Source of the DNA: an uncultured Planctomycetota bacterium
GTDB taxonomy: Bacteria > Planctomycetota > Planctomycetia > Isosphaerales > Isosphaeraceae
Reading direction: 5' to 3'
Length of the DNA stretch: 64,000 nt
Assembly (NCBI GenBank): GCA_963823665.1
Contig: CAWGMQ010000011.1
Coordinates: 864,001 to 928,000 of the forward strand
The notes under the pieces are model-generated. The model did not search any database. It worked only from the letters and a program-made list of their open reading frames with translations, and had not been told where the DNA came from. How positions within the stretch are numbered: position 1 is the first letter of the stretch; each line of letters begins with the position of its first letter. This document shows, in pieces, positions 16,601-34,208 of the stretch. The position numbers and the translations under genes are program-made.

Positions 16601-16817
16601 GCTTGAAGACGGCGGCCTTGTGCTCGCGAGGCTGGCGGCGATCGCATCCGGCGGCGCGTTCCTGGCGACCAATCAAGCGGACAATGACTGCGGTTTTTGT
16701 GATTATGCAGGCATTTGTGGTGATGTTGCCGGCGTGGCCCGTTCGAGCGATCGCAAGCTCAAGGCTGTCTCAAACGAAAAGCTGATACCCTACCTCGAGC
16801 TCCGCAGCAATGGCTAA
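13665..16817 (+). CDS. addB: AddB-like PD-(D/E)XK nuclease subunit with 4Fe-4S cysteines
   Basis: SASRLETLGACPLRYF, RGSLLHEVF, GRIDRID, WDYKTG and CGFCDYAGIC; overlaps the addA-like gene. Confidence 0.8.
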   Translation: MQSMLVNTLITDLSKVCREHLLDEKWLLAPSLRAGHEWLSAVARAGQPVVNAHVQTIMNLALSLAAPYLADKKQTLITRHQGTLIVEQVMRRLQKPDGYLWKLPPSERLAAVVFNALSAIRRAGLNSADLNPDYFEVAAKGLELTEISSAYMEALRDGGWIDRADALGFAIERLRTDAKALAETVLVLVPQDVDLTGLERELLDAIPARQVVRLSVDQPGAVSQEEGESRSDLGMQRWLHAPALAPDPVKHESAFMFRAVGEVNEVRAVLRRCLAQRIPLDQVELLCTDKATYLPLVYEVFPRLQQDESKVDDIPVTFQEGLPARRFRPGRALFAWLAWMRDDYPQRALVQMIREGLLKLPIREGDMPSFARLAGTLSSMKIGFGRERYLGILDEHAEAARLRSADPESLRDEDGELDNRRRNLEARLNELKILRELIDRLLKLSARAERSGVVMLESSREFLEQHAREASQLDKYASRGLIKQIMALERALDPAADASRIDFRAWLTSIADDVWVGGEGPRHGRLHVADILAGGHSGRPHTFVIGLDDARFPGSGMQDPILLDDERKKLSPALRTAASQLARKLEHVAHLFARLRGKITLSYSCYSLADDRETFPSSTVLSAFRTLSGQRDGDHAALNRWLGPAISFAPEEADQALNEAEWWLWRATGAEDLADPEAVVGLRYPHLARGYALARERSSDRFTVFDGFIEAPGRELDMTAPEGPAVSASRLETLGACPLRYFFRYVLELEPPDELVIDPNAWLDPLARGSLLHEVFERFLRNLVKRGFVPQASRDEAELLNVLEALIERYRAEIPPPSEAVFRREVAQLRRTARIFLYEEEEYCRETGNRPLFMEVSIGMRSAGVASKLDAGEPVEIKLPDGHTLRVRGRIDRIDQVAGKDPNVFAIWDYKTGGTWKYTQEPRPFWAGRVVQHALYTLVMSARLKALSGDFPGGRVDRFGYFFPSEKAGGERIDFTPEQLEDGGLVLARLAAIASGGAFLATNQADNDCGFCDYAGICGDVAGVARSSDRKLKAVSNEKLIPYLELRSNG

Positions 16818-19800
16818 ACGACCGTCAGCCCGTCAAGCCGAGCTACCCATCGGCGGCCCCGACTCGCCCCCGGACCAGGCTGAGCGCGATCTCATCGTCC
16901 AGGAGCTCGACCGCAATCTGCTGGTCGAGGCCGCCGCTGGCACCGGCAAGACGACTAGCCTGGTCGCCCGGATCGTCAACCTGATCAGGCGGGGTAAATG
17001 CCCGGTCGGCACCCTTGCCGCGGTGACCTTTACTCGCAAGGCCGCGGCCGAGCTGCGGGGGCGAGTGCAGGTTGAGCTCGAGAAAGCACTCCGCGGCGCG
17101 TCCGGAATCGAGAAAGACCGGCTGGATGATGCAGTCAAACATGCCGAGCGAGCATTTGTCGGCACGATCCACTCGTTTTGCGCGCGAATGCTGCGCGAGC
17201 GTCCGGTCGAGGCGGGGGTCGACTCTGACTTCGCGGAGCTTGACGAGGCGCAAGACGCTGAGCTTCGGCGGCTGGCCTGGTCAGAGCACATCGAGCGACT
17301 GATCACCGCCCGAGACCCGATTTTGAACGAACTCGAGGAGCTCGGCGTCGACATCGGTGAGCTGGGCTCGACGTTCGAGCGGTTCGCGGATTATCCGGAC
17401 GTGACGGAATGGCCTGCGCCCGAGGTAGCGATACCGGACCCGGCACCGCTCTTGGCCGCGCTGCGAAGTTACGTCGCGCACATCCGCTCGATCATGCCGT
17501 CGCTCCCGATTGAGGCTGGCAACGACCGGCTCATTCCCCAATACCGCCGTCTGGTTCGCGCGGTGCGTCAGACTGGTTTTGAAACGCCTGCCGATCTGGT
17601 GGCCGTGCTGGCGCCTTTCGTGAGCTCGTCGCGTGACGAGGCGTCAGAGCCGTCGGTCGTGCAAAAAATATGGCCGGGCGGAAAGGCGCAAGCCGAAACA
17701 GAGAAAGCACGATGGATCGCATTTGGCCAGCACCACGCCACACCCTATGTCCAGGCTTTGAGGCGAGCGCGATACCGCGTCGTTCTGCGCGCCGCTGGGC
17801 CGGCCGTTGTCGTGTACGATCGACTGCGGCGGGAGGGAGGTTGGCTCAATTTTCAGGATTTGCTGCTTGCGGCGGCGAGACTCCTGCGCGAAAGCGCCGC
17901 CATCCGGCAGTATTTTCGTAAGCGTTTCACGCATCTGTTGATCGACGAATTTCAGGACACGGATCCGATTCAGGCCGAAGTCATGCTGCTCTTGACGGCC
18001 GATGATCCAGGCGAAACGGACTGGCGCCGCTGCCGCCCTGTCCCGGGCTCGCTCTTTGTCGTCGGCGACCCCAAGCAGTCTATTTACCGATTTCGGCGTG
18101 CGGACATCGTCACTTACAACGAGGTGAAACGGATCATCGCCGCGAGCGGTGGAACAATCGTCTCGCTGACAGCGAATTTTCGCTCGGCTTCGTCGCTCGT
18201 TGAGTGGATCAATGAGAGCTTCAACAGGCGTTTCCCGCCAGCCGCCACACAGTTCGCACCGGTCTACTCTTCGCTCCACGTGGGCCGCCTCGACGAAAGG
18301 AACGGCGATCTTGCGGGGCTGTATATTCTCAAGGCCCCCGGCGGCAACAAGGAAGAGATCTTGGCGAATGAAGGCCAGATCGTGGCGCGGACGGTGCGCC
18401 ACGCACTCGATTCCGGCCGCAAAGTTCCGCGATCCGCGCGCAGCGCCACGAACCTGAAACTGCACAGCCGGGTGATTTCCTCATCGTTACTCGAAATACA
18501 TCAAGCTTGAGCCGCTACGCGGCCGCACTCGAGGCCCTGGGCATTCCTCATCAGGTAACCGGCGGCACGGCCTTGAATGAGCTTGCAGAACTGCCGCTCC
18601 TGTGCGCCTGTCTGAGAGCGCTCGTGCGCCCTGACGATCCCGTCGCACTGGTCGCCGTACTTCGAAGCGAGCTCTTCGGCGTGAGCGACAGCGCGCTCTA
18701 CGCGTTCAAGCGGGCTGGTGGTTCGTTCTCGTTCCGGCAGCCGATCCCGTCGAGTGGGATTTCTCCAGAGCATGCCGAGGCGATCGGCGAAGCGATGCAC
18801 CGACTCGACCGATACCTCGGCTGGCTCGATTTCTTGCCGGCCGTCACGGCCATCGAGCAAATCGCCGCCGATCTCGGACTGCCTGCGCGGGCGTGCGCAG
18901 TGCGCGGCGGGGATGTTCGCGCGGGGTGCCTTGCCAAGGTGATCGAGCTGTGTCGCAGCGTGCAGCATGAGCACGTTTCCCTCGTCGACATGGTGGATTA
19001 CCTCGAGCGGCTAATCACGGCCGATGAGAAGTACGACGGCATCTCGGTGCGGCAGCCCACGGCACCGGTAGTGCGGCTCATGAATCTGCACAAGGTCAAG
19101 GGCCTTGAGGCCCCCGTGGTGTTTCTTGCCGACCCAACGGGAAACTACGAACACCCGATCAGCTTGCACATCGATCGCTCCGGCGATCGCGTTCGCGGCT
19201 ACATGGCGGTCTATGGTCCACGACCGGAAACCGGTTTCTCGCAACCGCGTCTGATCGCCTGCCCCGTCGAATGGGCGCGATTCGAGGAAGCCGAGCGGGA
19301 CTTTCTAGAAGCCGAGAACGAGCGGTTGCTCTACGTAGCCGCCACTCGGTCCGGCACATGCCTGGTCGTCAGCGGCCGGGACAAACGGCCCGGTGACAAC
19401 CCCTGGCGCTCGCTCGTGGAAGACCTCGCGGCTGGGAAACAACACGAAGACCCCGGCCCGCAGCCCGCGCCGTCGCGCGACCAGATCAAGGTGGGCATTG
19501 CCGATGTGGAAGATGCGGTGAAACGGATAGACGAACGCTGGAGCGCGGTGCGGAAAGATACCTACCGGGTCGAAGCGGTCAAGGCCGCGGCCCTGGCTGC
19601 CACAAGCTCGCGTGCTGATTTACAACTCGGTGCGACAACGTCGGGCGCGAAGCCCGTCGACGTTGAGCCCGCCGAGCCCACCAGGCGGGCCGAGCTTGGC
19701 GTCGCCTGGGGCCAGGACATACACAAGCTGCTTGACGTGGCGATGCGCCGGCGCGACCGCGACCTTGAGAGCCTGGCGCGCTCGCTCGCCCAGGAGGGCG

Positions 19801-20195
19801 AGCTGGAGGAACACGATGAGGACTGGGTGCAACAACTCGTGAAGACCGCGCACAAGGTGCGGCAATCGGAAATCTGGAAGCGAGCTCTGGCAAGCGAGCG
19901 CATCTTTGCCGAGATTCCCTTCACGATGCTGGCCGAATCCGACGACGCTGCGGCGACTCGAGGCGTGCAAATCCTCAGGCGCGGAGCGATCGACCTGGCG
20001 TTCTTCGAAGGCGGCGGATGGGTGATCGTCGATTACAAGACCGATCGAGTGACCGAGAGCTCCGTCGGCGACAAGGTTGAATACTATCGTCCCCAGGTGC
20101 AAGGCTACGCCGAAGCATGGGCGAGCGTTGTCAACGAACCCGTGATTGAATCAGGTCTATATTTCACGTCGCTGGACCGCTACAGAAGGTTATGA
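16810..20195 (+). CDS. addA: AddA-like UvrD helicase-nuclease (frameshift near 18445)
   Basis: AAAGTGKT, TFTRKAA, DEFQDTD, VGDPKQSIYRFRRA, HKVKGLE and RLLYVAATR; C-terminal GAIDL...DYKTD nuclease. Confidence 0.85.
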
Positions 20196-21124: not shown

Positions 21125-21328
21125 TCCAAGTTTTTTCGATCGTCACGCCATAACTTTAGTCACCACAGGAATTTACATCCGAAATCGACGGTGTTCCGAA
21201 TATTCCATCGTCACGCCCTAAATACCAGCCGGACAGCTCTTTACGACGATAAACCTCGGGGTTCCGATTATTCCATCGTCACACTTAACTCCAATGGTGG
21301 TAAGGATGTGACGCAAATCGGTGGTTTT
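21125..21328. repeat. Three degenerate tandem units of 68 bp
   Basis: ATCGTCAC at 21139, 21207 and 21275; units 2 and 3 share GTTCCGA(A/T)TATTCCATCGTCAC (21/22 nt). Confidence 0.75.
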
Positions 21329-21391
21329 GGATGCTAAGAAGTCCCGGCTCCGTTGTCGGCGGGTTGCACGCCGTCTTATTGGAAGCAGCGC

Positions 21392-22900
21392 TCACGGCCG
21401 CAGCTCCCAGGCGTCGAGGAAGCGCAGCCGCGCGGGACTGCCGATCGCGAACAGGCTGACGCCGCGACTCGTGCCCGCGGGAAAGATCTGGTCGGTCAGG
21501 ACTACCTGGCCGTCGTCTGCGAAAACCTCGACGGAAGTTGCATCGACGAGTACGTGCAGACGAATCGGTCCGTCGGTCGATGTCAGCCGGCACGAGTGAC
21601 GCCCCGGGAAATCGCGGCTGAAGTTCGTGGCGCCCGAACTGCTCCGGTCGATGAAAACCGTGCCGGCGCGGACATCGACGCCGACAAGTGTTTCCTCATT
21701 TTCACCGCGGCGCACTTTCAGTCCGAAGGCGTCGGCCTCGCGGGCTGTGAATTCCGCGACGATTTCAAGCGAAGCTCCTTCGATCCCATCGACTTCGAGC
21801 TTTGTCTCGCCCTCGGCAATCGCACGGTTCTCGATCCGGTGGTTCTGGCCGCGAAGAAGCGCGAGGCTCTCGACCGGCTTCTGCACGAGGTGGAAGCCGT
21901 CGTGGGTCTCGCGCAGCGCCACAGATCGCGGGACGGTCATTGCTCCGCGCCAGGGGGAAGTGGGAATGTCATTGGCGTATTGCCAGTTGTTCATCCAGGC
22001 AATCCAGACCGGGCGGCCACCGGTGGGCGCGTCGTTCCAGCATTGCGAAGCGTAGAAATCCTTGCCGAAGTCGATCCAGAGCGGCGTGTCATTCCTCTCG
22101 CCCTCGGGCTGGAATTTCTTGCCGTCGAACCGGCCGACAAAGTACTGGCCTCCGGAGCCGCCGAAGGGGGCGCCCGCGTTAACGTCCACTTTGAGCACCC
22201 AGCGCGTTTCACCCTGGAGGCCGCCCTCGACTGGCGCCTCAAACAGTTCGGGGCATTCCCACACGCCGTGTCTCGATCCTGCGGGTCCGAAGTCGCTCAG
22301 TTTCTCCCAGGTCTTGAGATCGCCCGAGCCCCAGAGCCGTGCCTTGCGGTCGTCGGCGAGCACGGTCGCCATGATCCAGCGGCTCGACGGTTTGTGCCAG
22401 AAAACCTTGGGGTCACGGAACGAATTCGAGTGCAGGTCGAGGACGGGGTTTCCCTTGAACTTGGTCCAGGTGCGCCCGCGATCGGTGCTCGATGCCAGGT
22501 TCTGGGTCTGCTTCTTCTGACCGTCGCCGGTATAGACGGCGATCAAGGGCGGAGCGTCTTTGGTCCCGAGCCCAGACGTGTTTCGCGCATCGAAGACGGC
22601 GCTGCCCGAGAAGATCATGATTCCATTTTCCTCGCGGAGTGCGATCGGCAGGTGCTGCCAGTGCACAAGGTCGCGGCTGGTGGCATGCCCCCAGCTCATG
22701 TGCCCCCAGCGGTCGCCCTCGGGATTGTGCTGGTAGAAGAGGTGATACTCGCCGTCGAGAAAAACGAGCCCGTTGGGGTCGTTGATGAAGTTCTTGGGCG
22801 GTGTGAAGTGGTAAACCGGGCGCGCGCCGGGCGGCTCGTCAGCTCTCGTGACGACGAAGCTCATCGGAATGAGCACGACCGCAAGAATCGCTCGGCGCAT
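21392..22900 (-). CDS. GH32 levanase/beta-fructofuranosidase, secreted
   Basis: FINDPNG, WGHATSRDLVHW, FSGS, FRDPKV and WECP motifs; signal peptide. Confidence 0.93.
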   Translation of the reverse strand: MRRAILAVVLIPMSFVVTRADEPPGARPVYHFTPPKNFINDPNGLVFLDGEYHLFYQHNPEGDRWGHMSWGHATSRDLVHWQHLPIALREENGIMIFSGSAVFDARNTSGLGTKDAPPLIAVYTGDGQKKQTQNLASSTDRGRTWTKFKGNPVLDLHSNSFRDPKVFWHKPSSRWIMATVLADDRKARLWGSGDLKTWEKLSDFGPAGSRHGVWECPELFEAPVEGGLQGETRWVLKVDVNAGAPFGGSGGQYFVGRFDGKKFQPEGERNDTPLWIDFGKDFYASQCWNDAPTGGRPVWIAWMNNWQYANDIPTSPWRGAMTVPRSVALRETHDGFHLVQKPVESLALLRGQNHRIENRAIAEGETKLEVDGIEGASLEIVAEFTAREADAFGLKVRRGENEETLVGVDVRAGTVFIDRSSSGATNFSRDFPGRHSCRLTSTDGPIRLHVLVDATSVEVFADDGQVVLTDQIFPAGTSRGVSLFAIGSPARLRFLDAWELRP

Positions 22901-23026
22901 CGGAGGTGATCGCTTGTCGGTGGGAAGGTTGTCGATCGCGTAACGACGCCCGTTCCGCTCGAGAGTACCGGCGCGAGCCTTCGCCTGACCAGTCGGTGCC
23001 CTCGGATTCTTGCGCGCTCCCTGCGA

Positions 23027-23287
23027 TCAGTCAAAGCGCTCACCGCCGAGATACGCCGCTTCGACCTGCGCCCAAGCCTTCACGGACCCTCGCCGGGGCG
23101 CCTTGAAGTACCGGCCCATGCGGGCCATCGGCTGCTTGCAATCCGGACAAAGGAAGGGACGCTGCGGCACGTTGCTATCCCAGTTCGACGAGCCAGGCTG
23201 CTTGAATGTCTTGCGGCAGGCAAAGCACGCGAAATGGACCTTGTTGGTCGCCGATGGCACGCCTGTTCCACACCGCATCCCCGCCAC
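23027..23287 (-). CDS. Small zinc-ribbon hypothetical protein (cassette-like)
   Basis: HFACFACRKTFK...CPDCKQPMARMGRYFKAPR; GGGAGG SD before GTG. Confidence 0.7.
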   Translation of the reverse strand: MAGMRCGTGVPSATNKVHFACFACRKTFKQPGSSNWDSNVPQRPFLCPDCKQPMARMGRYFKAPRRGSVKAWAQVEAAYLGGERFD

Positions 23288-23302
23288 GGTACACCTCCCG
23301 CC

Positions 23303-23372
23303 GCCGAGTGAGCAGGCTCCTGACGGTCACCTTCAGAGACGGGGCCAGGTCCGCTGGATTGCCTCATTCGGC
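23303..23372 (-). mobile_element. Degenerate attC-like site
   Basis: GCCGAAT-GAGGCAATCCAGCGGACC just after the DUF4058 stop; right arm decayed. Confidence 0.5.
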
Positions 23373-23383
23373 ATCCGCCACTG

Positions 23384-24076
23384 CTACGCCGCGGGTTGTA
23401 CCCGCTGCTCCACACAGGTGCGTTGGTACGTAGCTTCCAACTCGACGGGCAGGCACAGGCCGCCCCGCAGCCACAGCGGCAGCGAGGGCAGGCGTTGCCC
23501 TACGGCCAGCGGCTCACGCCACACGTCCAGCGTCGGCGCGCCGTTCCGGTCCACAGGGCGGTACGCGGAACCGCTGAGCGATGGTCCTGGCCCAGGATCG
23601 CCCGCCCCTACCCGCGCCAGCAGCTCGCGATGCAGGTCGCCGGAGCGGTCGGTCACCACGTCCACTAGCACCAGTCCGACACCCGACTGCAGGTACGCCG
23701 CGCACTTCGACACCAGTGCCTCCCGATGCGCGGGCCGGTCCTTGTTGGCCGGACTGACCAGCTCGACCGCCCCCGCCAGCACGGGACCGCCGGACCGACT
23801 GAAAACGCCGATCTCAATGACTGCTGCTGGAAGCTCCAGCGGGAAATTGGCCAGGGGTGGGGCCGGGCTCCACGTCCCCTGGGGGAGCGCCGCGAGGTGT
23901 TCCTCAAAGGCCGCCACGTCGATCTCGACACCAAATTGCACGTTTGCCTCGGCGAAATATCCTTCCGGCAGCATCGCGTTGAGCTGCGAAGAAATATACG
24001 TGGCCCACGAGTTGTGGAACGCGTGCCGGTGCCGGTGCTCGCTCAGTGGGGGATGAAAGTGGTCCAGCAGCGGCAT
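23384..24076 (-). CDS. DUF4058 family (restriction endonuclease-like fold)
   Basis: MPLLDHFHPPLS...HAFHNSW...AVELVSPANKDR...LVDVVT...LPSLPLWL...LEATYQRTC. Confidence 0.85.
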   Translation of the reverse strand: MPLLDHFHPPLSEHRHRHAFHNSWATYISSQLNAMLPEGYFAEANVQFGVEIDVAAFEEHLAALPQGTWSPAPPLANFPLELPAAVIEIGVFSRSGGPVLAGAVELVSPANKDRPAHREALVSKCAAYLQSGVGLVLVDVVTDRSGDLHRELLARVGAGDPGPGPSLSGSAYRPVDRNGAPTLDVWREPLAVGQRLPSLPLWLRGGLCLPVELEATYQRTCVEQRVQPAA

Positions 24077-24240
24077 GGCATGTCATCCTCTGGAAAACGA
24101 TCAACAAACCAGAATAACAGACGGCCGTGCTCTCGTACATCGCTGAGCTCGGGCCGACCACCGATCACAGGCACTCCCGACGATGGCAATGACCAAGCCG
24201 ACCGTTCTACCCGTTGCGATTCTTCGCATCGCGGTCACCG

Positions 24241-24720
24241 TCAAGCCTCACCGCCGCCGACGTACCTCGAGAAATGTGAGACGACCCGATCGAAGACCTC
24301 GCCACGTTCGGGCTCAATCTCCTCCAACAGACAGATTGGCGCACAACAAGCCCCGAGGAAAAAAACGCGATCGGACCGATCGGATCTCGAAAGGGCGAAG
24401 AGCAGTTGTGCGACGGCTGTGTTCTCCGGTGCCTCGGGCGAGCGCCGCGACCAGAAGCCGCAGGCCATTCGTTCGATCGCTTCAAGGTTGGGGCCGTCGA
24501 GGGCTTGCTGTCGAGCCCATGAAAGAGCTGCGCTTATCTCGGCAGACGCCCTGCCGAGATGGTCGAGAAGATCACCTACGCAGGGGCAAAGCCAGTCGAA
24601 GATGTGTCCCTCATTCGGTGGGTCATCGAGGTACATCAGAAGTGGGATAGGCCAGCGCGCCCCTTCAATCGCGTACACCCTTCGGCACCCGGCGATGGCC
24701 TCCTGTGCTGTCATTCGCAC
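24241..24720 (-). CDS. Hypothetical protein (cassette-like)
   Basis: 159-aa ORF overlapping the end of the SMI1 gene. Confidence 0.6.
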   Translation of the reverse strand: MRMTAQEAIAGCRRVYAIEGARWPIPLLMYLDDPPNEGHIFDWLCPCVGDLLDHLGRASAEISAALSWARQQALDGPNLEAIERMACGFWSRRSPEAPENTAVAQLLFALSRSDRSDRVFFLGACCAPICLLEEIEPERGEVFDRVVSHFSRYVGGGEA

Positions 24721-25160
24721 GGCTCGCGGTCAAAGTACTCCTGTCCGATTGCTGCCACAAATGCGGCGACGTCTGGTGCGATGACCTCGGCGCTCTCGGG
24801 CCCTGCGATTGGATTGATCATGACGACTGGGAATGGCGGTCGTCCCGAACGGCAGTCGAGCGCGATCCGCTCAAGCCCACCGTTTCCGCCAATGAAAGTG
24901 AAGCCAGGGAAGTGTTCGATGAGGAAGGGATCGCTAAATCCCGCGACAATCTCTTCAACCCGATCCAGCAGCAGCAGAAGAGAGGGTAGCCCCAGATTAC
25001 CTTCGCCACCATTTGAGACCTCCAAGAGCTCGACAAGCTCGTTGGGCAAGGGATGGGGACTGGCTTGGCGGAGCCGATCGATCTCCTGTGGCGACGCACC
25101 CGGCTCGCTCTTCCGGTTGCGATGCGGCTTGGCCAGGATCCGCGAGACTCGATTGCGCAT
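24711..25160 (-). CDS. SMI1/KNR4 (SUKH) family immunity protein
   Basis: PGASPQEI...LPNELVELLEVSNGGEG...FIGGNGGLERIALDCR...IAPDVAAFV. Confidence 0.8.
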   Translation of the reverse strand: MRNRVSRILAKPHRNRKSEPGASPQEIDRLRQASPHPLPNELVELLEVSNGGEGNLGLPSLLLLLDRVEEIVAGFSDPFLIEHFPGFTFIGGNGGLERIALDCRSGRPPFPVVMINPIAGPESAEVIAPDVAAFVAAIGQEYFDREPCE

Positions 25161-25168
25161 CGTCAGAT

Positions 25169-25226
25169 GCCTTTCGACCAAGATCAACGGGCCCGCTGCA
25201 GGCGGGTCCGCTGTGTCTCGTCAGGC
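25169..25226 (-). mobile_element. attC-like site (best preserved, 58 bp)
   Basis: GCCTGAC-GAGACA-CAGCGGACCCGC-CTGCA-GCGGGCCCGTTGATC-TTGGTC-GAAAGGC; the upstream gene's TGA lies inside the first box. Confidence 0.65.
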
Positions 25227-25412
25227 CGGTTCCCCGGCAACGTGGCGGGTCACCCGCACCGGTCGGCGCGGAGTGAGGCGCACCACCGACCGTCCCCCGG
25301 CACGCTCCTGCTCGCGCAGGTCACGGGCGATCGCCGCCAAGTCGTAACCGAACTGTCGGCAGTATTCGTCGCGGGCCGTCCGGACCTCCCGCAACACGTC
25401 ATCCTCGCTCAT
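25221..25412 (-). CDS. Small partner protein normally found downstream of this PIN-toxin family (putative antitoxin)
   Basis: MSEDDVLREVRTARDEYCRQFGYDLAAIARDLREQE with its own GGAGG SD. Confidence 0.7.
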   Translation of the reverse strand: MSEDDVLREVRTARDEYCRQFGYDLAAIARDLREQERAGGRSVVRLTPRRPVRVTRHVAGEPA

Positions 25413-25544
25413 TGTCTTCGCCTCCAGGCAACTCTGCCACCACTCGCGGGTGATCTGCTGGTGTGCAGCCCGGACGAGGTCTCGGCTCGGCCAAGCCGTC
25501 AGGTAGCTCGGGATTGTGGTCTCCAGATAGACGCGCGGCTTCAT
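25413..25544 (-). pseudogene. PIN (VapC-like) toxin, N-terminal remnant
   Basis: MKPRVYLETTIPSYLTAWPSRDLVRAAHQQITREWW, then runs in frame into the partner gene; the rest of the PIN domain is missing. Confidence 0.8.
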
Positions 25545-25562
25545 TCCCACATTTTACCGCGA

Positions 25563-25624
25563 CGGCATCGGACTCGGCATCAGCCGCCCGCGGCAGGCGG
25601 GGCCGCTGCCTCGCCCTGCCAGGC
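25563..25624 (-). mobile_element. Degenerate attC-like site
   Basis: GCCTGGC-AGGGCGAGG-CAGCGGCCCCGC-CTGCC-GCGGGCGGCTGATG..., alignable with the 25169-25226 site. Confidence 0.55.
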
Positions 25625-26083
25625 GCCATCCCGTGCGCGCCGCCGCCTGCGCCGAGCGACCAGCCCACAGATGACCCCGCCGACGAGCCCGACGGGCAGA
25701 ATGAGCATGAGGTGAAGGATGTGGAACTGGCGCATCTCCCGAAGCGCGCCTCCATAGTTATTAGGAGGCGATCGATCAACCATCGCCCTCAACACTGAGA
25801 GCAGCAACCGACTCACGACTGAATCGGAATATCGAAACGCCGCCAGCACATCGAGTACGAGGACGAAGGTCGCCCAGCCGACGGCCGCGAATCCGAACCA
25901 GAAGGCCCCTTCCTCACCCTGGCGATTCCGTGCCAGGAAGGTTGCGAGCACCAAGGCGATCACCGTCACGAACCGGCACGTGTCGACCCAACCATCCTCG
26001 GCTGACCGGAGCGCGGCGACTTCGACGGCGACCAGGGCGACGAGGCTCATGATCCCGGCGATCGAGATTCGCAATCGGCCCAC
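25580..26083 (-). CDS. Planctomycete membrane protein (about 4 TM)
   Basis: RLRISIAGIMSLVALVAV N-terminus, FWFGFA motif and hydrophobic helices. Confidence 0.75.
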   Translation of the reverse strand: MGRLRISIAGIMSLVALVAVEVAALRSAEDGWVDTCRFVTVIALVLATFLARNRQGEEGAFWFGFAAVGWATFVLVLDVLAAFRYSDSVVSRLLLSVLRAMVDRSPPNNYGGALREMRQFHILHLMLILPVGLVGGVICGLVARRRRRRARDGAWQGEAAAPPAAGG

Positions 26084-26104
26084 GCGGCACCTCCGGTTCT
26101 GTCC

Positions 26105-26192
26105 GCTTGATACCCCACCCAGATCAGCGGCCCACCGTCAGTCGGTTTCGCTGCATCGTATCGTCAGGGTCCGCTGGAGTGCCAGGTCAGGC
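26105..26192 (-). mobile_element. attC-like site
   Basis: GCCTGAC-CTGGCACTCCAGCGGACCC...GGGCCGCTGATC; the stem has an unpaired A; the toxin stop lies in the first box. Confidence 0.65.
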
Positions 26193-26483
26193 CCGGGATT
26201 GCCAGCGACTCGGATCGCGCTTGCTGTGGTGAACGGCGATGACGGCGATCCGGTGGCTCTCGATTCGGTAGTAGAGGGCATAGGAGAACCGCTTCGTGCG
26301 TGTGTGCCGGACATCCTTGTAGATCAAAGCGTGGTGTTCATGATTCCGTTCGATCCGGTCCAAGACCGACTGGACCTCGGTCAGGAACTGCTCGCCCAAG
26401 CCCAACCGCTGGTTCTCGTATCAGGTATACGCTTCGTCGAAGTCGTCCCGAACGCCCGCCTGAAAGACCAGCGGCAGGTTCAT
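26187..26483 (-). pseudogene. RelE/ParE family toxin with internal TGA at codon 21
   Basis: MNLPLVFQAGVRDDFDEAYT*YENQRLGLGEQFL...RFSYALYY...VIAVHHSKRDPSRW; the stop at 26421-26423 falls where this family has W(YE). Confidence 0.8.
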
Positions 26484-26704
26484 CGGGGCCGTCTCACGTA
26501 GGCTTTGATTTCTTCCCAGGTCGCAACATTGCTGGGGTCCGCGTCGAGGGCCGCCAACCTGCGGTCGAGCAGGTCTTTCAATTCCTCGGTCAATTCGGGC
26601 TCGAACTCTTCGCCGGAAAGCCCGTCCCAGACCTCTTCGATCAGGCGGAGGCGGTCCTCCAGTGGCCAGGATTGGACCTCGGTGAGTACGGTCTTCAGAT
26701 CCAT
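26480..26704 (-). CDS. Addiction module antitoxin (TIGR02574-like)
   Basis: WPLEDRLRLIEEVWDGL...LTEELKDLLDRRLAALDADP...TWEEIKA; ATGA overlap with the toxin. Confidence 0.88.
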   Translation of the reverse strand: MDLKTVLTEVQSWPLEDRLRLIEEVWDGLSGEEFEPELTEELKDLLDRRLAALDADPSNVATWEEIKAYVRRPR

Positions 26705-27149
26705 GCGAGACTCCCTCGGCAGGTCGATTCAAGAGACCTTCGCGGAGACGAATTCATCTCATTCCAGTATACCCCGCCAGCGTGGCGCCTGCTCCTCATG
26801 ATCGGCGTTCGGGCAAGCATGGATCGAATCAGCTCCTGCCCGCGCACTTCCCCGGGCATAGCCGTCAGCGGCGCAGCCCGCCGTAGCCGGTGCTGTCCCA
26901 TCTCGCCGTCGCCAAGCGGTCGCCCGCGGCGAACGACGACTCGCCGCCGCATCGATGGCCCGCCCATGCCGGTGCTACTCGGTCCGCCCGAGGCGGGCTC
27001 CAGGCTGTGACGGAGGCGAACTGTCGGCCCGACGGTCAGCGGCCGATGCCGGCCCAGGGCAAGGTAAAGGTGCCGCGCCACCTGGCACCGATCCTCCGGG
27101 AATCGGCTCCGAGGTACGCGGCCAGAGCGGCGAATCTTCCGCGGAAGGA

Positions 27150-27202
27150 CGGCTTCCGACGACGATTGCCTCGCCCGGCTTGCGACCAAGAAGAATCACC
27201 AT
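27150..27202 (-). pseudogene. Truncated CsrA-like N-terminus
   Basis: Strong SD (GGGGAGG), then MVILLGRKPGEAIVVG; similarity is lost afterwards. Confidence 0.45.
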
Positions 27203-27529
27203 GTCCGCCCTCCCCTTGCGGGGCTCAAAGCCGCATAACGCTCAAGATCAGCGGCCCGCCGAAACGCGCGTCCGCGACCCCACCAGAAGCAGATGAACTT
27301 ATACCCCGAACCGCGATCGCCTACCAAGAGGAAGTGGTACCAGTAATTCTCGCCTGCCCGCGTGCCCTTGTCTGCTGCTTCCACGCAACTCAAGCGACCA
27401 CTGCATCGCCTTCTCTGATTGACATCTGGACAACGATCAGCGACGATTTCGAGGGCGCCGAGCGCCCGCCGCCCGCGCTCGCCGCGGCAATCTGTCTCGT
27501 CTCGTTCGCAATGCTGGGAACGCGCCTCC

Positions 27530-28084
27530 ATGGACTCAACGCACGCAAGCCTGGTCGATCGGCTGCGCCAGCCGTCCTCGGCTGAGGCCTGGGATCGGTT
27601 CGTGCAGCTTTACGGGCCGCTGCTGCTGCACTGGGCGCGGAAGCTCGGCTTGCAGAATGAAGACGCAGCAGACCTTGTGCAGGACGTGCTCATCGTGCTC
27701 GTGCGCAAGATGCCGGAGTTTCAATATCAGCCCGATCGGACGTTCCGGGGGTGGATGAGAACCGTCCTCTTGAACAAGTGGCGCGATCGCCCGCACCGTG
27801 GGCCGGCTGCCCCGCTCGACAGCGACATCCAGCCGGTGGCTCCCGATGAATCCGACGAACTTGAGGAACGCGAGTATCGCCTCTACGTCGTGGGTCGGGC
27901 GCTGCGTTTGATGTCGGGGGATTTCGAGCCAACAACCTGGCGCGCGTGCTGGGAAACGGTCGTCGTCGGCCGGCCAGCGGCAGACGTTGCCGCCGAGCTG
28001 GGTATCACCGTCAATGCCGTTTACCTGGCCAAGTCGCGGGTGATCGGCCGGCTGCGCCGTGATCTCGCCGGGCTGCTCGATTGA
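27530..28084 (+). CDS. ECF sigma-70 factor (kinase-associated planctomycete type)
   Basis: STHASLVDRLRQ...AWDRFVQLYGP...DAADLVQDV...FRGWMRTV...AADVAAELGITVNAVYLAKSRV. Confidence 0.92.
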   Translation: MDSTHASLVDRLRQPSSAEAWDRFVQLYGPLLLHWARKLGLQNEDAADLVQDVLIVLVRKMPEFQYQPDRTFRGWMRTVLLNKWRDRPHRGPAAPLDSDIQPVAPDESDELEEREYRLYVVGRALRLMSGDFEPTTWRACWETVVVGRPAADVAAELGITVNAVYLAKSRVIGRLRRDLAGLLD

Positions 28085-28105
28085 ACCGTGCGACGCCAGA
28101 CCTAG

Positions 28106-29647
28106 TCACTTGGTCTTGGCACTCGCGGTGCTCGAGAATTCCGTGCCTGCGGAGTCGATCGCACCAACCTTGAACTGATACGTGACGGCGTGCGTCAGAC
28201 CAAGCACCGAGAAACTCGTGGTGCCGCTGCCGAGAGACTTGATCGGCGTCCAGACGCCGCCGATCAGCTCATCGATGACATAGCCTGTCGCGCCGGTGAC
28301 CGCCGTCCATCCGAGGTTGATCTGAGTCGTCGACGCCGCGGTGGCGGTGAGTGTCGGCGCCGTGGTGAATGTCTCGATGGTCTGCTGTGCGGCAAAAACC
28401 GTTCCGGCGACGTTCGTCGAGGCGACCTTGAACGTATACGAGGTACCGCTCGCCAGCCCGGAGACATTATCGGTCAGGCTAATTCCGCCAAGACTCGCAA
28501 TCTGCTTCCAGGTGCCCGAAACCAATTCGTCCACGACGTAGCCCGTTGCACCGCTGGCTGCGCTCCATGACAGGTCGATCTGGGTGGGAGAGACTGCTTT
28601 GCCAGTGAACGACGGGGCGGCCGGAAGCGGGATGAACGAGCCAGTGTACGAGCTTGCGTTGACCTGGATCTGACCGAGGTTGGTGTTTCTGGTGAAGAGA
28701 TTTCCACTCTGGACGATCCCAGCGCTGAAGCTCGTGCCGACGGCAGACGGGGCCGGCGAAGGCGATGGCACCGTGGCAGGCACGACACATGTATCGGAGG
28801 CGTAATCGAGCTCTCCCCAGCCAACCGCGGCGTAGCCGGCCTCGAGCGCGGAATACCACGCGTAGTTGAACTCGCTCTGGCTGAAGGCGTTGGTCTGATT
28901 CGCGGTCGTCACCGCCGCGACCTTGAACCCGATTGCGGCCTGGTAGGTCGCCAGTTGGGTTGCTTTTGACTGCCAGGTCGCAAGCGGAACGTAGCTGCTC
29001 GTGTCGACCTGGTAGCTCTCGTAAAGGTAATAGTCAGTCGCGTTCAGGAGCGTAGCGGTTCCCGACGGGTTACTGGAATTCTTGGCGTTGCCAAACGCGT
29101 CGGCCGGCACGAACGCATTGGCCATCACCACCAACCCTTGGCTGTGCGCGTAGGACACGAAGGCGTTCTGCCGCGCGCGGGTCGTGCCGAAGTCGTAACC
29201 GAAATCGTCCAGGAAGATTCCCTTGGCACCCATGGTCTTCCAGTCGTTGATCTCAGTCGTCATCTGGTTCGTTGTGAGATTCTCGGTTGAGACGCCCGTA
29301 TCGACGTAACCGAAGACCAGCGTGTTCTTCATCGCTGGATTCGCGATGATCTGCTGCGTATTGCTGTGGTCGGCATTCGTCGGCAGCTCGAGGGTGTCGC
29401 CGAGAACGACCATCGAGTACGACCCGAGTGTGCTCGCGGCCTTGGACAGGTTGCCTTGAGCGTTGTTGATGAGGGAAGGAAACCCGTAATAAATCAAGAG
29501 ATTCCCCGGCGCGAGGCTGGCGGTCATGAGCTGGCGGTCGTCCAGGCATTCCACGTTCAGCCGCGCCTGGCGCCGTCGCCGGTGCACGGTGCTCCCGCCC
29601 TTGGACATCTGAAGCGACCCGAGCAGCGAGGACAGAAGACGATTCAT
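28106..29647 (-). CDS. Secreted protein: planctomycete export motif, glycoside-hydrolase-like TIM barrel and two FN3 domains
   Basis: RRRRQARLNVECLDDRQLM; VFGYVDTG, GIFLDDFGYD and YLYES; two (S)TQI(D/N)L(S/G)W...ATGYV...Y(T/Q)FKV FN3 repeats. Confidence 0.8.
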   Translation of the reverse strand: MNRLLSSLLGSLQMSKGGSTVHRRRRQARLNVECLDDRQLMTASLAPGNLLIYYGFPSLINNAQGNLSKAASTLGSYSMVVLGDTLELPTNADHSNTQQIIANPAMKNTLVFGYVDTGVSTENLTTNQMTTEINDWKTMGAKGIFLDDFGYDFGTTRARQNAFVSYAHSQGLVVMANAFVPADAFGNAKNSSNPSGTATLLNATDYYLYESYQVDTSSYVPLATWQSKATQLATYQAAIGFKVAAVTTANQTNAFSQSEFNYAWYSALEAGYAAVGWGELDYASDTCVVPATVPSPSPAPSAVGTSFSAGIVQSGNLFTRNTNLGQIQVNASSYTGSFIPLPAAPSFTGKAVSPTQIDLSWSAASGATGYVVDELVSGTWKQIASLGGISLTDNVSGLASGTSYTFKVASTNVAGTVFAAQQTIETFTTAPTLTATAASTTQINLGWTAVTGATGYVIDELIGGVWTPIKSLGSGTTSFSVLGLTHAVTYQFKVGAIDSAGTEFSSTASAKTK

Positions 29648-29860
29648 GGCAATACCCCTGCGCGATTGTTGTTGCCTGATGCCGGCAGGCCAACTTGGCC
29701 AGCCGGAAGAGACTACGGTAGGAATCGCCGGGGTCTGTCAGGAAAATCTGGGCCGTGCAGAAAAAGACCCGCCACGTCTGGAGCTCTCCACGTCAGACCA
29801 TCACTCGCTCGGCAGCAACGCCTTGTGCCAGCACGAGTTTGCGCGATTACACCCGCGCCC

Positions 29861-32800
29861 TCACTTCGCGAACCGCGGGTCGAGCGCAGCCGCCTGGCGT
29901 TCATCCGCCTCGGCCTCTCGTACCTGGCCGAGGCCTTTGCGCCAGGCCTCGCGCGTGGTACGCCAGCGCCAGAATCGGATCGATCTTCAATGCCTCGTCG
30001 CAATCGGCGATGGCGTTCTGGTGATTGCCCTGTTGCACGTAGGCCCAGGCGCGCCGCGCCAGGACCACCGCGTGCCGGCGATCGATCTTTAGCGCCGCGG
30101 AAAGCTCGGCGATGGCGCCCGCGTAGTCGTTCGCCATGAGAAGGGCTTCGCCGCGCCTCCAGCGGGATTCCCAGCTCCCCGGATCTCCTTCGACCACCTT
30201 GGCGTAGTCGGCGGCCGCTTCGCGCCATCGGCCGAGCCGGGCGAAGACGCGCCCGCGGAAGCTCCGCTGATCTCGGTCGGCCGGATCGGTCGCGATCAAG
30301 CGATCGAGGTGCCAGAGGGCAGCCTCTTCGTCGCCATCGGCCTCATATTCGCTTGCGAGGCAGCGGTGCCAGGCGGTCGAATCCGCCGGATCCACCCGGC
30401 CGAAGCCGGGGTACTTCGCACGTAACAATCGCCAGCGGTCGAGCCATGCCTCAGAAGTCAACCCGGCATCCGAACCGGCTCGAAGCTCATTGCCGGAGAG
30501 AACCTCCGCCGCCCGGCAGAGGTCGTCGAGCGGCATCGTGGTCTCGGCGGTCAAATCATCCAGGCTCCAGGAGAGCAGATGTCTCCCACCCCCTGCCAGC
30601 ACGGCACGGCGACCATTGGGAGTGACGAGGCTGCACCAGGCATTCCCACCGAATTCCAGGAAGGGTGAGACGGGTCTAGCCGTGTGCCGGTCCCAGACGC
30701 AGGCGGTTCCGTCCCTGCTGGAGGTGACGATCCAGCGCTCATTTTGAGTAAACGTGGCCGTGTACACCGCGCCCTTGTGCAGGAACGTGCGCAGGACCTT
30801 GGTGGTTCGCCAATCCCACAAAAGAGCGGAGCCGTCACGGCAGGAAGAGAGTACGCTGTTGCCGTCGCGGCTGAAGCATGCGGTGTAAACCCAATCGGGA
30901 TGACGAAGCGGTGCGGATAGCGGCTGGCCGGTCTCGAAGTTCCAGACGCGCACCGTTTTGTCCCAGGATGCAGTGAGCAGCATGGTGCCGTCTTCGGAAA
31001 GCACGGCATCTCCGCAGATGGCTTCATGAACGAGCGCCGGGTAACGCGGCAGCCACGTGGCTGTGTCCCACACCCGGACCATGCCGTTCGTGCCCCAGCT
31101 CAAGAGCGCGGCCCCATTGGGAGTGAATCTGACCGACGGCCAGATATTCTCGGCGGGAATGGCATCACCCTGCTCGAGACGGCGAACCAGCTTGCCGGTG
31201 GCCGGGTCGAGAATCAGGATCTGTCCACCCGTGCAAATTGCAGCTAGCTGCGTGCCGTCCAAACTGTACGCGAGACCGCGCGCTTCCGCGGGCAGCGGTA
31301 TCTCCTCGAACAGTCGCTCGCCGGTCGTTCGGCTCCAGAACTCGAGCCTCCCCACGTTCCCCTCCGGCTCGACTCGCATGGCCGTTCGCTCTTCGCGATT
31401 TCCAGCGAACGAGCAAACGGTCACAACCTGGCCGCCGTCGGGCGACACTGCGGCCTCGGTGATCAGCCCTCCGACATCGAGCAGCGGGCTCGCCGGCCGG
31501 CCCGTCTCGACTTCGTAGACGCGCAAGGTGCGGTACACATTCGCCCACCAGCCCGCTCCGGTCGCCACGACGTAACGGCCGTCGGGAGTCAGCCGGGCGG
31601 AGGTTAGACCGACATCAACGGGCAGGTAGAGATTCCGGGGGTTGCCGCGCGGCGGCGACCAGACGCGCACCAGTCCGTCCGACTGGGCTGTCGCCAGCAC
31701 CCTGCCATCGGGCGAGTAGGCAACCAGCTCAACGCCGTCCTGATGCACGAGCGGGCCCGCCATTGCCTCGGCATCTGTCAGGTACCAGAAACCCGCACGA
31801 CGATCCTCGCCGCCGGTCACGACGGTTCGCCCGTCGGGATTGAACGCGACGGACGTCACGTAATTCTGATGCGAGAGAAACGTGCCGACCTGCTTGGCTT
31901 GCCGCGCGTCCCAGATTTGCGCTCCGCTGAAGCCCGCCACCACGAAGAATGAGCCATTTGCGTTTGCCGACACCAGAAACGCCTGCCCGCCGATTCCCCG
32001 TTCGTTCTGGAAAGGAATACTCTTGACCTCGCTGCCGGTTTCGGCGTCCCACCAGCCGGCGCGACGGTCTTCAACGACGGTAATGAGACCTCGACCACCC
32101 TGGACGAATGCGGGCGGCGCGGGATGCACACCATACTTCGGATCGGGTTGTTGATGCGGCACCGGGGCGAAAAGCGGTTGCGGATTTTCCTCATTTCCCG
32201 GGATCGCAAACACCCGGGCGAGCTGATCGTTGCAAGCTGTCGCCAAGCGGTCTTCCTTCTCATTGAATGTCAGGCCGACCACGCGCCTGGGGTGGGGCAG
32301 CTCCGGAGTGATGAAGAGGCGCCGGGTCAAATCCCATACGCGAGCCCCCTGCCCGCCCAGCGCCAGCAGTCGTCCGCTCGCGCTCAAGGCCATCGCGCTC
32401 GTGGCACGGCCGGTTGTGAATTTGTGTCGAAGATCACCGCTGGGAAACGCCCGAATATGAACCTCGCCTCCCTGCGCCGCCACGATGACGGATTGACCAT
32501 CGGGAGTCCATGCCGCGCACGCGGCCTCCAGGTCGCCGTTGCCCCATTCCAGGGCCTCCTCACGCGCCAGGTCCCACACGAAGAATCGGCTCTGATGCGT
32601 GATGCAAAGCAAATACTGGCCGTCGGGATGAAATGCAATGTGACGGAGGCCTTGGCCCCCATGCTGAAGGGCAGCCGCCGGTTCCGGCACGAGCCGCGCC
32701 CACGATCGCACCCTGACGCGGCTTGCGTGCTGCCGGAAGGGCTCGGAGTCCTGGCGTGCGGCGTTGGCAAACCAGAGCAGCGCGTGCGCCGCGTCACCCT

Positions 32801-34208
32801 GGCTTGCTGTGGTGAGCCCGTAGGCGGTGTACATGTCGGAAAGCGCGGTTTCGGCCTTGCGCCGCTCACCGGCTTCCCGCTGCCGGGCTGCTTCGGACTC
32901 GGCCGCCACGTGGCCGAGCCAGACGGCGGCAACGCTGGCGCCGGCCGCCACCGTCACAATGAGGGCGGCCACTGCCGCCGTGAGGCTCGCGATCAACGGG
33001 TTTCGCCGGCACCAACGCCGGAACCGCTCGATCTCGCCCACAGGCCTGGCGCGGATGGGCTCGTTGCGGAGGAACCTGCCAAGATCTTCAGCGAGCAGGG
33101 CCGCCGTGCTATACCGCGCGGAGGGATCCTTACGCAGGCACTTCAGGCAGATCGTCTCCAGGTCGCGCGGGACTTTCGGCCGCAGCCTGCGGGGCGGAAC
33201 GACTTCCTGCGTTCGCACCATATCGCAGGTGTCGAAGGGTGTGGCACCCTGAAACGGCGGGCGCCCGGTGAGCATTTCGTACAGGATGGCCCCCACGGCG
33301 TAAACGTCGCAGGGCGGGCCAATCTGCTTGCTGATGCCACTGGTCTGTTCAGGCGCCATGTAGCTGGGCGTGCCGAGTATCCACCCGGTCTGAGTCAGGC
33401 TCGCGCCGCCATCGATCGGCTTGGCCAGGCCAAAGTCGGTGATCTTGGGAATGCCCTCGCCGGTCAGGAGAATGTTCGCCGGCTTCAAATCCCGGTGCAC
33501 GATCCCACGCGAGTGGGCGAAATGAACCGCGGCGGCCACGCCCTCGGCGATCTGGGCGGCATAGCGCGTGTCCTGAGGCTTGCCCGCCAAGCTCGCTGCC
33601 AGCGTGCCCCCTTCGATCAACTCCATCACGATGTAGGGGCGGTCGCGGTGGCTGTTGACCTCATAGATCTGTACGATCCGGGGATGCTGCAACTGTGCGA
33701 CCGCCTCGGCTTCGACCAGAAAGCGGCACAGGTCTTCGCTGCTTGCGGTTTCTCCCCCGCGAATCATCTTCAAGGCGACCAGACGGTTGAGCTGAACCTG
33801 GCGGGCCTTGTAAACGATGCCCATGCCGCCACGCCCGAGCTCGCCCAGGATCTCGATGCCCGGCAACCGTTCGGCCGGCAGCTTGGGGAAAGTCGTCGAA
33901 TCGCCCTTCATGGCAGGCGGCACGCGGAACTGCGGTTTCGCCGGCAACGGCGCGGGTGGTGGGGCAGCCGCGATCCGCTTCAGAACGCCATCGACCTCCG
34001 GCTCGCCACCCGGCTGCGCACGGCCGGCGTTCCGAATATCAGCGAGCAGTGGATCCCTTGCCTGGGCCGATCCGACCAGTTCCGAGCACTCGGAGCAAAC
34101 CAGGATATGTTGCCCGAGCTGCTCGGCGTCCGGTTCCGGGAGCTCTCCGAGCGCCAGACGCTCAAGGTCACGTGGGTCAGGACAGTCAGGCGATCGGGTC
34201 ATGGACAA
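29861..34208 (-). CDS. Ser/Thr protein kinase with N-terminal HxxxCxxC finger, TM, WD40 and TPR repeats (frameshift near 29937)
   Basis: [32 protein letters not shown] and GTPSYMAPE. The true C-terminus [24 protein letters not shown] lies in the other frame. Confidence 0.92.

Follow-up and report, generated by a model that had tools for sequence, protein, structure and literature searches.

The locus between the GH32 and ECF sigma factor genes

The stretch of DNA analysed here, called the window below, comprises 64 kb (G000:C11:864001-928000) of the 16.46-Mb assembly (92% complete) of an uncultured planctomycete of the family Isosphaeraceae. Between a GH32 glycosidase gene and a divergent gene for an extracytoplasmic function (ECF) sigma factor, every one of the nine or ten short open reading frames (ORFs) or remnants in the ORF list is on the minus strand. 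A preliminary description of the same DNA had counted about nine, and had proposed that they form a fossil CALIN (clustered attC sites without an integron integrase). The present analysis leads to essentially the same view: the locus is very likely a decayed integron cassette array, for which no integrase was found, which is now eroding by point mutation and deletion and whose cassettes are probably immobile. All three points on which the proposal hung, namely the attC signal, the genomic distribution of the hairpins, and gene order in a relative, have come out in its favour, as described below. The genome studied is denoted G000 and its congener G029 (84% complete); G037, G070 and G071 are other genomes of the family.

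The hairpins that lie among these genes have the architecture of attC sites, with R''-L''...L'-R' boxes, unpaired spacers and extrahelical positions, and the genes have the anatomy of cassettes, being short, co-oriented, and ending at or in an R'' box. The genes and their flanks are as follows, in window coordinates.

21392-22900, minus strand: GH32 glycosidase (PF00251, PF08244); a flank, not a cassette
23027-23287, minus strand: 86-aa zinc-ribbon-like protein with two CxxC motifs, with 19 related loci; absent from the congener locus
23384-24076, minus strand: DUF4058-like gene, common to G029 (91% DNA); PF13267 at E 6e-5, 22.9 bits, cut-off 25
24241-24720, minus strand: conserved 157-159 aa protein of no assigned family; no Pfam or NCBIfam match
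24711-25160, minus strand: SMI1/KNR4 (SUKH-1) protein; PF09346, 29.2 bits, above cut-off
25221-25550, minus strand: 5' part (about 40 codons) of a PIN gene fused to a small downstream partner, with its stop in the next R'' box; by homology to a copy on G000:C4
25580-26083, minus strand: 167-aa hydrophobic protein from the ORF list, reading through a mutated R'' (TGG) box and stopping inside the hairpin; Pfam matches sub-threshold only
26187-26483, minus strand: ParE-type toxin pseudogene with a nonsense TGA at codon 21 and its final stop in the next R'' box; by homology to a G070 cassette
26480-26704, minus strand: antitoxin, addiction-module component; PF09720 at E 1.7e-10, TIGR02574 above cut-off
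26975-27202, minus strand: short ORF from the ORF list, left over from the first cassette and without a match in Pfam or NCBIfam
27419-28084, plus strand: ECF sigma factor, a flank divergent from the array, on the side expected to hold intI; TIGR02937 above cut-off; conserved in G029

The preliminary description had correctly placed a stop codon inside the first box in two cases, ParE (ORF end 26187) and the PIN partner (ORF end 25221), and had seen TGG in a third, where the membrane protein ORF runs on into the hairpin as far as 25580. Of its SMI1 immunity pair, the SMI1 member is borne out by the Pfam score, while the neighbouring 157-159 aa protein matches no family, so that a pair is at most putative; DUF4058 finds a match that falls short of the cut-off. 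A putative resemblance of the N-terminus of the 26975-27202 ORF to CsrA has no support in Pfam and was discarded.

Three of the cassette genes are broken or fused, and decay extends beyond the crossover triplets to a nonsense codon, the PIN deletion and a fused attC site. The ParE pseudogene has no direct Pfam match, but over 98 aa it shares 50% identity with an intact ParE cassette (PF05016) from an integrase-linked array of G070, where the antitoxin likewise has an intact homologue (59% identical). The G070 toxin gene ends with the TAA of a canonical R'' (AAC) box, and the window reads TGA at the same position and in the same register. The PIN gene has lost about 120 of its 159 codons, some 40 remaining, and the two parts of the fusion match at 67% and 44% a full 159-aa PIN gene (PF01850) and its partner at G000:C4. 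The 157-159 aa protein has 33 relatives at E <=0.001 among 110 candidates, itself included, of which none (0/33) carries a Pfam domain. A contig from an independent run is identical over 25461-25694, covering the whole 25563-25624 site and the start of the PIN fusion, and portions of the array are reproduced exactly by short contigs of two other runs; given this letter-for-letter agreement, decay in those parts is not an assembly error. No joints were seen in the independent contigs, whose coverage is sparse and uninformative on excision.

Sites of the attC family and the missing integrase

Twenty stretches upstream of intI genes of the family were taken as the source of reference attC sites. 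Most of them contain tandem sites of the form GCCTAAC, 9 nt, CAGCGGAC, loop, CCGCTGA, 8 nt, GTTAGGC. Covariance models R1 and R2 were built from alignments of, respectively, all 38 short sites and 29 of 59 long sites, chosen for AAC and GTT; the 38 R1 training sites come from integrase-linked arrays of six other genomes and include no G000 sequence. The R1 structure has attC geometry, with 95.5% paired cells and two-sided changes in 8 of 21 pairs, a result as high as which was seen in 0/500 shuffles. In this family the geometry comprises 7-nt R boxes, unpaired spacers of 5-6 nt, L boxes with two extrahelical positions, and a short variable loop.

The hairpins of the window belong to the same attC family that adjoins intact intI in relatives. 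The three named in the preliminary description gave a strong signal with the family-trained R1, ranking as the top three among the window's 32 matches at E up to 10, where the best match outside the array reached 11.9 bits (E 1). The score is asymmetric between the strands (37.6 bits on the minus versus 16.4 bits on the plus strand). Together with two half sites, the array's sites, all on the minus strand, are:

23349-23372: left half of an attC, made up of R'' (AAT), spacer and L'', with a right arm eroded beyond recognition; left-arm profile 24.3 bits, the best in the window
25169-25226: best-preserved attC; GAC in R'', GAA in R', left spacer shortened by a 3-nt deletion; R1 37.6 bits, E 3.5e-8 (genome-wide E 8.9e-6)
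25563-25624 (R1 match 25567-25624): degenerate attC, both R boxes mutated; R1 22.2 bits, E 0.001
26105-26192 (R1 match 26113-26169): chimeric attC; R'' GAC, R' destroyed; R1 27.9 bits, E 2.3e-5; R2 18.6 bits
27233-27276: right half of an attC that has lost its left arm; L' box, 8-nt spacer and an R' keeping GTT intact at 27239-27233; R1 15.1 bits, E 0.13

Model R2 recovers the 25169-25226 and 26105-26192 sites and not the one at 25563-25624. The last-but-one of the listed sites had been described as a single hairpin; an attC is indeed present, but it is a chimera in which the left arm of the ParE cassette (26192) is fused to a second attC (26169-26113), the left-arm profile matching at both 26192 and 26169. 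Two left arms on one right arm imply that a cassette was lost by deletion and not by the integrase. The left half previously noticed near 23303-23372 stands: neither R1 nor R2 reports it, and its left-arm score compares with a best of <=8.8 bits in each of 10 shuffles. A right-half remnant suggested at 22938, by contrast, is at chance level; it lies outside the top 12 right-arm scores, R1 matches there only on the plus strand (9.1 bits, E 6.8), and the motif GTCGTT[AG] occurs 11 times in the window. The best right-arm match of the window is instead the one overlooked at 27233-27254, with 29.5 bits (training range 22.1-32.9), far above shuffles. A 16-nt stretch containing GTCAGG is found after the 23372 half site, at 23303-23325, and again after an attC remnant in G029 (L086:1419-1437), in each case before a different gene; it may be a surviving R' end.

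The R''/R' triplets of the three sites are non-complementary (GAC/GAA, GGC/CCG and GAC/GGG), while the half sites retain AAT and GTT, respectively, so that every site with a left arm has either a non-complementary triplet or no right arm. The complementary RYYYAAC/GTTRRRY core is present in the integrase-linked sites of the family and absent from those of the window, which are accordingly decayed attC sites, not functional ones. The earlier statement that all crossover triplets are mutated holds for the four sites with a left arm; it cannot be extended to the right half at 27233-27254, which keeps GTT. Three same-strand sites with E <=0.001 lie within 1.03 kb, besides the two half sites, which is well inside the CALIN spacing of at least two such sites within 4 kb. 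No U-tract terminator was called at any of the array's sites, and a promoter and terminator scan gave results at chance level.

Over the 16.5 Mb of G000, R1 found 33 matches (150 of 19,392 first-look candidates being scored), of which 27 fall in four same-strand clusters: 12 at C3:1.666-1.676 Mb, eight at C7:0.274-0.282 Mb, four at C11:0.650-0.653 Mb and the three in the window, with six scattered. The 40 matches in G029 are likewise clustered. The family is located at gene ends and one strand at a time, and is not dispersed on either strand independently of gene ends as repetitive extragenic palindromic (REP)-like repeats would be. The further integrase-free arrays of G000 are C3:1666154-1676557 (L021; 15 sites), C7:272668-282098 (L024; 11), C11:650542-653079 (L100; four) and C10:536956-540208 (L102; three), and a duplicated cassette occurs in both the C3 and the C7 array. 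The window array is among the most eroded of these. Integrase-free attC clusters are already known and common, and G000 has at least four, so a single locus of this kind carries little weight.

As had been proposed, no integrase was found. IntI scores above the TIGR02249 cut-off in 35 of 121 genomes of the family and in neither member of this genus; the best score in the G000 assembly was 112.6 bits against a cut-off of 265, and contig C11 had no match to this model or to a family IntI, so that no intI was detected near the array. A family IntI query retrieved only fragments from G000 (30-53%) and G029. No intI remnants were detected beside the arrays, tblastx of 30 intI loci giving only scattered short matches. 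The locus is not a complete integron, its proximal end being occupied by the ECF sigma gene, with no intI found and no specific model applied for attI or Pc.

In the congener both flanks persist, as do the DUF4058-like gene and, as a 93% DNA match (26658-26818), the leader and 5' end of the antitoxin gene, but a DUF1254/1214 gene and a small ORF with an aspartyl-protease-like gene stand in place of the array's other genes. Gene content between the two flanks therefore differs. The shared block begins 114 nt before the antitoxin ATG, and the leader of the G070 cassette is 116 nt, which hints at a cassette boundary, although the agreement may be due to chance. In other genera, 14 loci with a GH32 orthologue had no attC within 1.5 kb, so the position of the array appears to be genus-specific. 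Frameshifts occur in the DUF4058 and GH32 genes of G029 (L117:8545-9870) and are possibly assembly errors.

Three features of the surrounding DNA may be recorded here. On one side the ECF sigma gene adjoins genes for a spherulin-4/Fn3 protein and for a long, repeat-containing kinase-like protein (27419-34208), an arrangement kept in G029 to at least 31000. On the other, an intergenic repeat of about 230 bp at 21135-21370, with an internal 50-nt direct repeat (21165-21214 and 21233-21282), has at least 12 further copies in G000 at 72-90% identity and three listed in G029, and is unmatched at the orthologous G029 position; it is either like a miniature inverted-repeat transposable element (MITE) or a repeated regulatory element. 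A helicase-nuclease gene, which from its motifs we take to be UvrD/AddA-like, is present at 16810-20195 as two overlapping ORFs with a break at about 18507, reflecting a real split or an assembly error.

Biased erosion of the crossover triplet

Across the family, erosion of attC favours AAC>GAC and GTT>GTC about threefold over other positions, as judged from raw position counts. Left arms with TGA instead of TAA make up 8 of 128 integrase-linked sites versus 16 of 34 sites of this genus. The models detected 84 sites in G000 and G029, a set with a few misparsed rows and with cassettes that are not independent of one another. In 28 of them R'' position 5 reads G, and in 25 the partner position, R' position 3, reads C, compared with 6-11 transitions at each of the other A/T core positions. 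When exact patterns were searched family-wide, CTGAC left arms numbered 76, spread over 34 genomes (11 control matches), and CCAAC left arms 22 (six control matches), with, as further comparators, 24 for an A>G change in L'' (eight control matches) and five CTAGC (29 control matches). CTAG is depleted to 0.53 of expectation, and two of the comparators create it. The corresponding right-arm counts, 111 GTCAG versus eight GCTAG, were set aside, since many GTCAG are chance-like and the comparator makes the avoided CTAG.

In 69 of 120 integrase-linked sites the TAA ends an open frame of at least 60 codons. Where TAA is the stop of the frame, TAA>TGA is silent and TAA>CAA is not; this argument does not reach the R' side. 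A genome-wide hot spot at TAA was considered and rejected: A/G divergence between G000 and G029 over 82,512 aligned columns is 0.177 for TAA, 0.151 for AAC, 0.096 for TAG and 0.087 for CAG, and since these trinucleotide rates differ at most twofold they do not yield a threefold effect. Divergence is high at the level of 5-mers, where numbers are tiny (CTAAC 5/14, TT[A]G 12/40), so local context may contribute, and TpA adenines may turn over fast. Nor does a compensated GAC/GTC pair appear to circulate as a functional class, because the two changes are uncoupled within sites: the 84 genus sites include 13 AAC/GTT, 12 GAC/GTT, 10 AAC/GTC and five GAC/GTC. When the start of each cassette was compared by eye with its own R'' box in 35 adjacent pairs <=1.2 kb apart, leaving out pairs with other letters or visibly misparsed boxes, no clear coupling emerged (raw counts C/G 8, C/A 8, T/G 7, T/A 12). 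In an array of G037 (L075, C1:2071300-2091200), whose adjoining intI carries a single in-frame TAA, two sites are changed in both arms, to GAC and GTC, which restores pairing; these are the best candidates for a functional GTC class.

The triplet bias is accounted for in part by the retention of stop codons and by the local context of mutation, and is most likely mutational plus stop-codon retention. A more novel reading is that a single T3-A1' transition (AAC>GAC or GTT>GTC) acts in planctomycete cassettes as a preferred off-switch that keeps the stop (TAA>TGA) and disables excision, being fixed about three times as often as other attC changes through selection or through the integrase reaction itself; if true, cassettes would thereby have a general path to becoming permanent genes. 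We consider this rather unlikely. The genes of the window array decay too, so there is no sign that useful genes are being fixed there. A literature search whose coverage excluded subscription journals found no paper on biased natural triplet decay.

Origin of the array and comparison with known systems

The best account of these results is that the cassettes were probably inserted one by one by an integron integrase. IntI would have folded and recombined the bottom strands of the sites, between the G and the TT of the triplet, and the platform (intI, attI and Pc) may later have been deleted, or the array may have been split off or seeded at a secondary site; all three routes to a CALIN are listed by Cury et al. 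(2016, PMC4889954). Whichever occurred would have preceded or roughly coincided with the separation from G029. The surviving genes, for the SMI1, 157-aa, DUF4058-like and zinc-ribbon proteins and the antitoxin, would now pass vertically.

The preliminary description had held that the changed triplets lock the cassettes in place. Immobility is likely because integrase loss, triplet mismatch and deletions act together; a changed triplet need not suffice. In the IntI1 assay of Frumerie et al. (2010, PMC2811028) a non-complementary triplet lowers recombination from 2.2e-3 to 6e-6 (about 370-fold), but compensated GTC and GAA attCaadA7 recombine with wild-type attI1 at 1.0 and 0.44 of the wild-type frequency (their Table 4). 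Compensated changes at position 3 are tolerated in one partner only, and GTC sites show no detectable cleavage in attC x attC reactions (PMC2811028).

Several observations weigh against the view of the locus as a decayed, immobile array. The case for immobility extrapolates from IntI1 results obtained with different attC sites, and an intI could have escaped assembly, since the two genomes of this genus are 92% and 84% complete. The antitoxin-ParE pair is the sole gene pair of the window shown directly to be an integrase-linked cassette elsewhere. Paralogues in G000 of the PIN gene, the ParE fragment and the 157-aa protein stand elsewhere with no attC nearby. The zinc-ribbon homologues, at 19 loci mostly titled Planctomycetota, have attC-like ends by eye in one of 10 inspected and none in the other nine, and the three R1 matches over the 19 loci do not adjoin the gene. 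The cassette-precise comparison with G029 that had been recommended shows a difference in content, but most of it is not precise to the cassette: in G029 the antitoxin 5' end runs directly into DUF4058 and the 23372 site is lost from inside its R'' box, so that breakpoints other than the start of the shared block fall within genes or within an R'' box. Integrase-driven turnover of cassettes at this locus is consequently only suggested. Lastly, no independent contig spans the whole array.

That the array is instead a dormant but usable reservoir, in which GAC/GTC is a tolerated crossover and an integrase acting in trans could excise the cassettes, appears very unlikely. The proficiency of the compensated attCaadA7 sites (PMC2811028), the frequency of GAC/GTC variants in the family, including the G037 sites changed in both arms, the GTT retained at 27233, and the use of CALINs in trans proposed by Cury et al. 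(PMC4889954) are all consistent with it; yet the window triplets are in the non-complementary state that costs some 370-fold, GTC sites are not detectably cleaved with one another (PMC2811028), GAC and GTC are uncoupled in the 84 genus sites, and the arms bear deletions and stem mismatches. It is scarcely credible that the hairpins are REP-like repeats or terminators in an ordinary variable island. They do fold as simple GC-rich stems, and several neighbouring genes have attC-free homologues, but the same hairpin family stands in tandem beside intI in relatives and is clustered at gene ends on one strand per cluster, with a strand-asymmetric score and no U-tract terminator; we regard the integrase-linked homologous cassette of G070 as having already refuted this explanation. 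Equally remote is the notion that the true array is intact and its decay mostly assembly error in a metagenome-derived genome. The frameshifts in the GH32 and DUF4058 genes of the congener and the split helicase-like gene of the window would fit such error, but multi-base deletions and fusions are atypical of read errors, 34 genomes show the same variants, and the independent contig is identical over 25461-25694, although that identical coverage does not extend to the nonsense codon of ParE or to the sites at 25169 and 26105.

A decayed cassette array thus remains by far the best explanation. Set beside its congener and an intact homologous cassette, the locus illustrates clearly what an integron looks like at its end stage. 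It suggests that cassette-derived genes are undercounted in large planctomycete genomes, and the position-specific erosion of the triplet bears on how cassettes lose mobility.

The T3-A1' pair tested in the IntI1 cleavage-site mutants (PMC2811028) is the commonest natural change here; there the changes were engineered, compensated, and made in class 1 and Vibrio sites, whereas here they are natural, mostly uncompensated, and known from sequence alone. A phylum-level model of planctomycete chromosomal attC exists (Ghaly et al. 2021, PMC8352920), and the window sites match attC beside intI in genomes of their own family; the available passages of that paper do not treat decayed sites or triplet variants such as those of the window array. 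In Xanthomonas, about half of the genomes carry CALINs left at conserved loci by ancestral integron activity (bioRxiv 10.1101/2025.06.18.660453), and these arrays with lost or inactivated intI adjoin fixed chromosomal genes, as in the window; unlike them, no intI was found in either member of this genus, and each genome has several separate CALINs. Of the 279 CALINs catalogued by Cury et al. (PMC4889954), 83% have fewer than six sites and 95% have no intI pseudogene nearby, and the window array resembles them in having two or more attC on one strand with neither intI nor an intI pseudogene close by. It is more eroded than a typical called CALIN, with no site in which both R boxes are intact, one chimera, two half sites, and broken genes.

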